From assembly GCF_003334405.1 (NCBI RefSeq), contig NZ_QOWM01000002.1: 64,000 bases of DNA; one strand, 5' to 3'. This document shows, piece by piece, positions 28,111 to 28,209 of this stretch. Below the pieces are notes generated by a model. The model was not told the origin of the DNA. It worked only from the letters and a program-made list of their open reading frames with translations, and searched no databases. Position numbers and translations under genes: made by a program. The stretch's first letter is position 1, and each line of letters begins with the position of its first letter. The stretch is from Escherichia coli. GTDB lineage: Bacteria > Pseudomonadota > Gammaproteobacteria > Enterobacterales > Enterobacteriaceae.

Positions 28111-28209
28111 GCCTGATGCGCTACGCTTATCAGGCCTACAAGAGAATTGCAATATGTTGAATTTGCACGATTTTGTAGGCCGGATAAGGCGTTTACGCCG
28201 CATCCGGCA
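28111..28209. repeat. REP/BIME element (two REP units) between convergent obgE and dacB
   Basis: GCCTGATGCGCTACGCTTATCAGGCCTAC and GTAGGCCGGATAAGGCGTTTACGCCGCATCCGGCA match the REP palindromic unit consensus. Confidence 0.85.

Follow-up and report, generated by a model that had tools for sequence, protein, structure and literature searches.

The stretch of Escherichia coli DNA analysed here, hereafter called the window, is 64 kb long and aligns end to end, in reverse orientation, with K-12 MG1655 (NC_000913.3, approximately 3,294,668-3,358,667). The two sequences differ at eight single bases and by no indels, and none of these differences falls within the four repeat sites described below. 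One of the eight is located at window position 40425 inside the initiator tRNA gene metY, the second of two tRNAs in the window (36510-36593 and 40379-40452), where the strand analysed carries G and MG1655 carries A. The window is thus from a close K-12 relative and not from MG1655 itself. In K-12, metY differs from metZWV by one base. Rfam families scoring above their gathering thresholds were the ArcZ sRNA (7984-8091), the greA leader (29736-29857), the rimP leader (40544-40644), the S15 (rpsO) leader (46926-47040), and the SraG sRNA (47270-47441).

Gene names and strands were taken from the MG1655 annotation, in which obgE/dacB, mtr/yhbW, and yraQ/dolP are convergent pairs, and infB and rbfA, both in the nusA-infB operon, are read in the same direction. 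Each of these four pairs encloses a gap (28087-28271 for obgE/dacB, 45327-45489 for infB-rbfA, 54096-54212 for mtr/yhbW, and 61571-61683 for yraQ/dolP) in which REP-type repeats were located, and all of the REP units are extragenic. The corresponding MG1655 intervals are, in the same order, 3,330,397-3,330,581, 3,313,179-3,313,341, 3,304,456-3,304,572, and 3,296,985-3,297,097.

Identity of the REP units

No other repeats are as abundant in E. coli as REP/BIME sequences, and K-12 carries 355 annotated REP elements and some 600-700 units (PMC4550694, PMC3333891, bioRxiv 10.64898/2026.03.23.713779). Three types of unit are distinguished: y, a 35-nt GTAGGCCGGATAAGGCG... sequence (PMC8266576, PMC3333891, PMC4550694); z1, a 29-nt GTAGGCCTGATAAGCGTAGCGCATCAGGC sequence of the GCCTGAT type (PMC8266576, PMC3333891); and z2, a 37-nt GTAGGCCTGATAAGACGC... 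sequence (PMC8266576, PMC3333891, PMC4550694). An AA opposite GC mismatch in the stem is a REP feature (PMC8266576). In BIME-1, z1 and y are joined by the L linker, which is long and conserved and in many cases has an IHF site, and the element occurs singly; in BIME-2, short linkers separate z2 and y, and the units are repeated in tandem a variable number of times (PMC3333891). The naRNA units have a Y-l-Z2 layout (PMC4550694). The elements are non-autonomous, and their GTAG-tagged hairpin is acted on by a domesticated transposase, TnpA_REP (RAYT; yafM in K-12) (PMC2817692). This enzyme recognises the hairpin, with its bulge and GTAG tag, when the DNA is single-stranded, and it both cleaves BIMEs and recombines them (PMC8266576, PMC3333891).

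The original prediction placed REP units in four coordinate ranges of the window. Each range was found to hold one or more GC-rich imperfect palindromes of REP type; the coordinates were accurate, and all seven clear units of the window fall at these four loci. A consensus search with blastn-short gave complete matches for both units of obgE/dacB, at 28111-28139 (29/29) and 28175-28208 (34/34), and partial matches at the remaining sites with E-values from 2e-8 to 4e-3. No comparable match to the consensus was returned by this search elsewhere in the 64 kb. The tail 14-mer CTTATCMGGCCTAC occurred three times exactly and three times with two mismatches, in every case within a REP site. For 128 kb the expected number of exact 14-mer matches is approximately 0.001, which puts the exact occurrences far beyond chance; with up to three mismatches allowed the count was noisy (13 seen, 6 expected). 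A REP pattern with fixed spacing had zero matches over the window, because loop lengths vary among the unit types. All seven units formed hairpins when folded, as REP palindromes should, with z-scores of -2.85 to -6.0 relative to shuffled sequences, and either strand has the potential to form them.

The seven units were aligned with five units from other strains. The resulting 12-sequence alignment has the signature GTAG, GCCKGAT, AA bulge, variable loop, GC, ATCMGGC, in which GATAAG and CATC are invariant and the AA/GC bulge is present. Stem cells are paired in 95.8% of cases, and sliding the partners lowers this to 38.5% or less. The K and M positions covary, as G-C in y units and T-A in z units, which constitutes a compensatory switch. 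A covariance model built from the 12 sequences, R1, was run over the whole window with filters off and returned the seven units at 40-59 bits, a match by construction since the model includes them. GTAG is intact in four of the seven units, namely both units of obgE/dacB and both units of yraQ/dolP. The mutated tags of this strain read CCAT and GTTG at infB-rbfA and ATAG at mtr/yhbW, and at both of these places other strains carry the canonical tag. The repeats are dispersed: the obgE/dacB query recurred at a median of at least 39 places per E. coli genome and the yraQ/dolP query at a median of 5 places per genome (megablast). The 28-nt words of this search are too long to catch the more diverged units of infB-rbfA and mtr/yhbW; these units match R1, and the infB-rbfA site passes the Rfam threshold for naRNA4.

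These properties bear on whether the hairpins might be ordinary gene-specific terminators, possibly bidirectional, that merely resemble REPs. All of the units are stable hairpins in 3' regions, and 78 REPs genome-wide overlap predicted bidirectional terminators (bioRxiv 10.64898/2026.03.23.713779), both of which fit such a reading. Against it, a T run follows none of the seven units, the full-length consensus matches belong to multi-copy sequences dispersed in every E. coli genome, and separate hairpins of the intrinsic type adjoin the REP pairs at obgE/dacB and infB-rbfA. Terminator identity was rejected for the units on the consensus and copy-number results, and the reading is hardly credible. 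The seven units are, with high confidence, REP units of the types y, z1, and z2, arranged as one BIME-1, two single BIME-2-type y-z2 units, and one solitary z1. The four sites are already known, ordinary copies of REP/BIME elements, and there is nothing new in their kind.

A further REP-like hairpin, missing from the earlier list of sites, was observed in the mlaB-ibaG gap at 21710-21747 (TCAGGCCGGATATGGCGTTAACCGCCTGTCCGGCA), the sole other site above noise in the R1 scan (15.7 bits, E approximately 0.006). The hairpin proper (21716-21746) folds at -21.3 kcal/mol, is without GTAG, and has 77% identity to the y unit at 28171-28209. The region is single-copy and showed no length variation in 5425 of 5426 genomes. 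The hairpin may be what is left of an old y unit, or it may belong to the operon and have no relation to REPs.

The four sites and their variants among strains

Strains were compared across 5426 complete E. coli genomes. Variation from strain to strain, which had been proposed as a check on these junctions, was found at three of the four loci (obgE/dacB, mtr/yhbW, and yraQ/dolP), and the fourth, infB-rbfA, was intact in 5423 of the 5426 genomes. The polymorphism is like that of mobile elements, and we infer mobility of these copies. In the REPINs and RAYT of Pseudomonas and the subterminal hairpins of IS200/IS605 elements there are likewise inverted pairs of GTAG-tagged hairpins that are non-autonomous and variable between strains in presence and copy number. 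The E. coli units differ from these in their AA/GC bulge and their three sequence types, and the RAYT gene yafM lies outside the window. The four neighbouring loci represent different points of a REP life cycle: a polymorphic insertion at obgE/dacB, a fixed fossil without GTAG at infB-rbfA, a landing pad for IS621 at mtr/yhbW, and a copy-number-variable, replaceable unit at yraQ/dolP. Their natural alleles could be used to test the effect of REPs on the expression of flanking genes.

The obgE/dacB site is a canonical, textbook BIME-1. Its 29-nt z1 unit (28111-28139, minus strand) forms a hairpin of -13.4 kcal/mol (z -4.0) and scores 42.7 bits with R1; its GTAG is on the minus strand, which makes it an iREP with respect to the obgE mRNA. 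The 35-nt y unit (28175-28209, plus strand) retains GTAG, forms a hairpin of -20.9 kcal/mol (z -4.25), scores 58.6 bits, and gives a 40.5-bit match to the first hairpin of the Rfam family naRNA4. Between them a 35-nt L linker (28140-28174) joins the two GTAG ends head-to-head, and this linker is itself dispersed, the median number of places per E. coli genome being 13. It contains an IHF-consensus-like site on the minus strand at 28150-28162 (ATTCAACATATTG, one mismatch to WATCAANNNNTTR). In a motif scan of all four loci only this linker had such a site, against a background of 0.89 such matches per kb. An inverted z1 and y pair, head-to-head across a conserved linker of about 35 nt with an IHF-like site, is the arrangement of BIME-1 (RIB/RIP elements) in general; no structural difference was found, and the obgE/dacB copy is a presence/absence polymorphism among strains. 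The linker together with the head of z1 (28132-28174, minus strand) also matched Rfam ES036 (CssrF) at 31.5 bits, below the gathering score of 37.6, and the similarity suggests that this Rfam family may have been built on BIME-1 linkers.

Alignment of filled alleles (the window and NIPH17_0036) with empty alleles (O157:H7 and ETEC6333) delimited a polymorphic block of 146 nt (28090-28235) that comprises the whole BIME-1 and short flanks. The block follows the stop codon of obgE (28084-28086) and precedes the intrinsic terminator of that gene (28238-28269, plus strand), an 11-bp stem followed by a T run that was detected in a terminator scan and folds at -21.7 kcal/mol (z -5.3). The terminator overlaps the end of the dacB gap, is kept in the empty alleles, and abuts the obgE stop codon in strains that have no BIME. 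With a junction-specific query and a coverage of at least 80%, the 146-nt block was present in 1938 of the 5426 genomes (36%) and absent from 64%; a spread sample gave 14 filled and 25 empty sites. The intrinsic terminator would already set the 3' end of obgE, and the BIME-1 would then be a dispensable addition to the 3'UTR. A BIME-1 placed between a stop codon and an intact terminator provides a natural experiment, filled versus empty, on the effect of such elements on the host mRNA.

The infB-rbfA site is one y-z2 unit of the BIME-2 type. Its y unit (45340-45374, plus strand) carries CCAT in place of GTAG, forms a hairpin of -23.3 kcal/mol (z -6.0), and scores 39.8 bits with R1. A 5-nt linker, read off the sequence at 45375-45379, connects it tail-to-tail to a 37-nt z2 unit (45380-45416, minus strand; hairpin -19.8 kcal/mol, z -3.9; 41.3 bits), in which GTAG is mutated to GTTG (CAAC for CTAC on the plus strand). 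At the equivalent place the diverged E. coli strain P31_YH1 has the canonical GTAGGCCGGAT...CAGGCCTAC. Loss of GTAG here and at mtr/yhbW would mean that these units are no longer TnpA_REP substrates in this strain, and the loss fits the status of the infB-rbfA unit as a fixed fossil. Length changes at the locus are limited to a few bases, and the unit itself is present in both copies that were read. Positions 45343-45413 (plus strand) match Rfam RF02564, naRNA4 (CssrE), a family modelled on y-z2 units of REP325, at 68.1 bits with a gathering score of 59.5; at obgE/dacB and yraQ/dolP the matches to this family are partial (28.7-40.5 bits). The match at infB-rbfA is a similarity of sequence and predicted structure to a REP325 unit and no evidence of an HU-binding RNA; the nucleoid-condensing role of naRNA4 is itself disputed in a preprint. 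The REP325 BIME-2 array (naRNA1-6; RF02564) shares y and z2 units and short linkers with infB-rbfA and yraQ/dolP, with the difference that REP325 has six units and these two sites have one each. Unlike BIME-2 arrays, the infB-rbfA site does not vary in copy number, and its GTAG/CTAC tags are gone in this strain. On the 3' side of the REP pair and 5' of rbfA lies a terminator-like hairpin with a T run (45448-45473, plus strand; -15.2 kcal/mol, z -2.7), which was missed by a simple terminator scan and is conserved in P31_YH1. Before transcription of the operon reaches this hairpin, the REP pair might serve as an attenuator or as punctuation.

For mtr/yhbW, the range originally given was 54100-54205. 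It contains a single z1 unit and no further REPs, and the sequences on either side of the unit do not fold alone. The unit (54136-54164, minus strand) matches the 24/24 core at 95.8%, forms a hairpin of -11.5 kcal/mol (z -2.85), and scores 40.1 bits with R1. Its tail on the plus strand is TCTAT here and CCTAC elsewhere, and is canonical in 04-00955 and O157:H7. It is embedded in a locus-specific imperfect palindrome of 103 nt (54099-54201) whose arms pair around the z1, with fold energies of -52.3 kcal/mol on the plus strand (z -6.2) and -54.3 kcal/mol on the minus strand (z -6.9). The arms contain y-REP-like fragments (GCCTTATCCG...CCTAC and GTAGG...CGGATAAGGC) and may be decayed units. Folded alone, the arms gave no hairpin (z +0.71 and -0.93), and R1 gave them no score; the left arm, the one used as a query, has a single copy in E. 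coli and was found in 5241 of the 5426 genomes. On these three grounds the arms were rejected as REP units or as another dispersed repeat. The terminator scan found no intrinsic terminator in the gap. This nested palindrome is the sole mildly unusual item encountered.

The mtr/yhbW junction is contiguous in 4837 of the 5426 genomes, and in about 11% the unit is interrupted by IS621 or displaced. Sampled cases of the non-contiguous genomes were of two kinds, an IS621 insertion or a two-gene insertion of 1.4 kb without REP. In strain 2014C-3057, the IS621 insertion lies exactly at the CT in the tail of z1 (...caggtCT[IS621]...tatCTacgtagg), and in a sample of 40 genomes three break at this point. 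IS621 is a known REP-targeting insertion sequence (cited in PMC2817692), and its insertion is independent support for the mtr/yhbW z1 as a functional REP target. The IS621 copy of 2014C-3057, a member of the IS110 family, occupies positions 4014-5292 of the extracted locus and has the ends tgtatt...aacagtatct. In strain PK8275 approximately 1.4 kb with two extra genes, one for an L,D-transpeptidase family protein and one for a hypothetical protein (3947-5391 of the extracted locus), stands between mtr and yhbW, and no REP unit remains at that locus.

The mtr/yhbW site might instead be primarily a locus-specific structured element of 103 nt, for example a BIME of three units that has decayed or a long 3' hairpin acting in both directions, with the z1 at its tip being secondary. 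Arms that pair with each other and not singly, a fold of -52 to -54 kcal/mol on either strand, the conservation of the single-copy left arm, and the y-REP-like fragments, which suggest decayed units, point in this direction. Weighing against it are a central unit that is an unambiguous z1 (40-46 bits with R1), the use of this unit by IS621 as a REP target, the lack of independent evidence for arm function, and the complete absence of the element from PK8275. We regard this reading as improbable. The narrower proposal, that a conserved 103-nt bidirectional hairpin captured or grew around a z1 and is dedicated to forming the 3' ends of both mtr and yhbW, is a long shot. The site is described here as a solitary z1 at the tip of a palindrome.

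The yraQ/dolP site is one y-z2 unit, arranged head-to-head with both tags intact. The 35-nt y unit (61585-61619, minus strand) has CTAC intact on the plus strand, matches the core at 24/24, has two stem substitutions, and forms a hairpin of -17.0 kcal/mol (z -4.0; R1 52.0 bits). The 38-nt z2 unit (61633-61670, plus strand) has GTAG intact and forms a hairpin of -21.8 kcal/mol (z -4.5; R1 50.7 bits). The 13-nt linker between them, read off the sequence at 61620-61632, recurs with small changes in the two-unit allele of MB7671. The head-to-head orientation across 13 nt distinguishes this pair from the naRNA unit, which is tail-to-tail. Most genomes have one y-z2 unit at this locus, and some, such as MB7671, have two (four REPs), so that unit number differs between strains as it does in BIME-2 arrays. 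In 429 of the 5426 genomes (8%) the y-z2 unit is replaced by a different dispersed repeat. The replacing repeat, which we take to resemble 'boxC', was read in E. coli 201609 (443-565 of the extracted locus); its core, ...cccctctcccctttggggagagggttagggtgagggg..., has a median of 6 places per genome. No intrinsic terminator was found in the yraQ/dolP gap by the terminator scan.

Location bias and possible roles

It had been stated that three of the four sites lie between convergent transcription units, which holds for obgE/dacB, mtr/yhbW, and yraQ/dolP, the infB-rbfA site being inside an operon. Classified by type, the 66 junctions of the window carry REPs at three of 9 convergent, one of 48 tandem, and none of 9 divergent positions (Fisher p = 0.007). 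The enrichment at convergent junctions is thus borne out, and the stronger wording, that REP/BIME elements mark such junctions, is not, with six of the nine convergent junctions having no REP. The association is a tendency and no rule. It agrees with genome-wide figures already published, according to which approximately 60% of REPs are in convergent, 40% in tandem, and 1% in divergent gaps, and 207 of 704 convergent gaps (approximately 30%) contain a REP (bioRxiv 10.64898/2026.03.23.713779). The bias of REPs to convergent and tandem gaps is accordingly not new. REPs probably persist downstream of genes, where insertions would harm least, and such persistence would leave them as observed in the window, in three convergent gaps, one intra-operon gap, and no promoter-bearing divergent gap.

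The original prediction also proposed that the elements stabilise 3' ends or bind gyrase or IHF. For the REP family, blocking of exonucleases and Rho-dependent attenuation have been shown experimentally (PMC6061677; preprint bioRxiv 10.64898/2026.03.23.713779): transcribed REPs block PNPase and RNase II, many Rho-dependent 3' ends are at such hairpins (PMC6061677), and REP325 attenuates read-through and also stabilises the upstream mRNA (preprint bioRxiv 10.64898/2026.03.23.713779). By extension from the family, the hairpins in the window, if transcribed in a 3'UTR, would stall 3'-5' exonucleases and could assist Rho-dependent attenuation. At mtr/yhbW and yraQ/dolP they probably define stable 3' ends of both converging mRNAs, since they are the only strong hairpins there and the gaps have no intrinsic terminator. 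The Rho-dependent transcript-protecting stem-loops described by Dar and Sorek (2018) are likewise stable hairpins without a U tract directly 3' of stop codons; like them, the REPs of mtr/yhbW and yraQ/dolP are the sole hairpins of their gaps, and a role in forming 3' ends is predicted for them from sequence.

IHF binds the L linker of BIME-1 (PMC2817692, PMC3333891). The L linker of the obgE/dacB BIME-1 is likely to be an IHF site judging by its motif, and IHF binding is plausible at this one site of the four, as only its L linker carries an IHF-like sequence. Cleavage by gyrase is concentrated on the y units of BIME-2 (PMC6379681). By analogy, the y units of the two BIME-2-type sites are possible gyrase sites, and gyrase binding in the window would plausibly be limited to them; the published enrichment concerns multi-unit BIME-2 arrays, and the sites in the window are single units. 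A literature search for data specific to the four loci on transcript 3' ends, half-lives, REP transcription, and IHF or gyrase yielded none, and the available gyrase supplements list none of five gene names looked up for these loci.

The copies might also be purely selfish or neutral passengers, located after genes only through selection against other insertions and without effect on their neighbours. Several observations favour this reading: the BIME-1 is missing from obgE/dacB in about two thirds of genomes (approximately 64%) with the obgE terminator intact regardless, an unrelated dispersed repeat takes the place of the yraQ/dolP unit in 429 genomes, PK8275 has no mtr/yhbW unit and other strains have one that is broken by IS621, and GTAG has decayed at two loci. 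Genome-wide, terminal REPs have no effect on mRNA half-life (bioRxiv 10.64898/2026.03.23.713779). Other observations oppose it. The infB-rbfA locus is intact in all but three of the genomes (5423/5426) and its hairpins are kept despite drift, with compensated stems in P31_YH1; the composite palindrome of mtr/yhbW is conserved, its left arm being found in 5241 genomes; the family experiments demonstrate exonuclease blocking and Rho-dependent attenuation; and convergent pairs bearing REPs have higher expression (bioRxiv 10.64898/2026.03.23.713779). A complete lack of effect on the neighbours is unlikely, though it merits serious consideration. Given that 64% of genomes have no BIME-1 at obgE/dacB and that 8% have a replaced yraQ/dolP unit, any locus-specific function is at most dispensable. 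The significance of the four sites extends little beyond their correct annotation.

Repeats of another kind were observed within two coding sequences of the window. The N-terminal part of infB (42939-43268) contains in-frame tandem repeats with a period of 24 nt, and the C-terminal part of deaD (52165-52690) contains short in-frame repeats rich in arginine and glycine.
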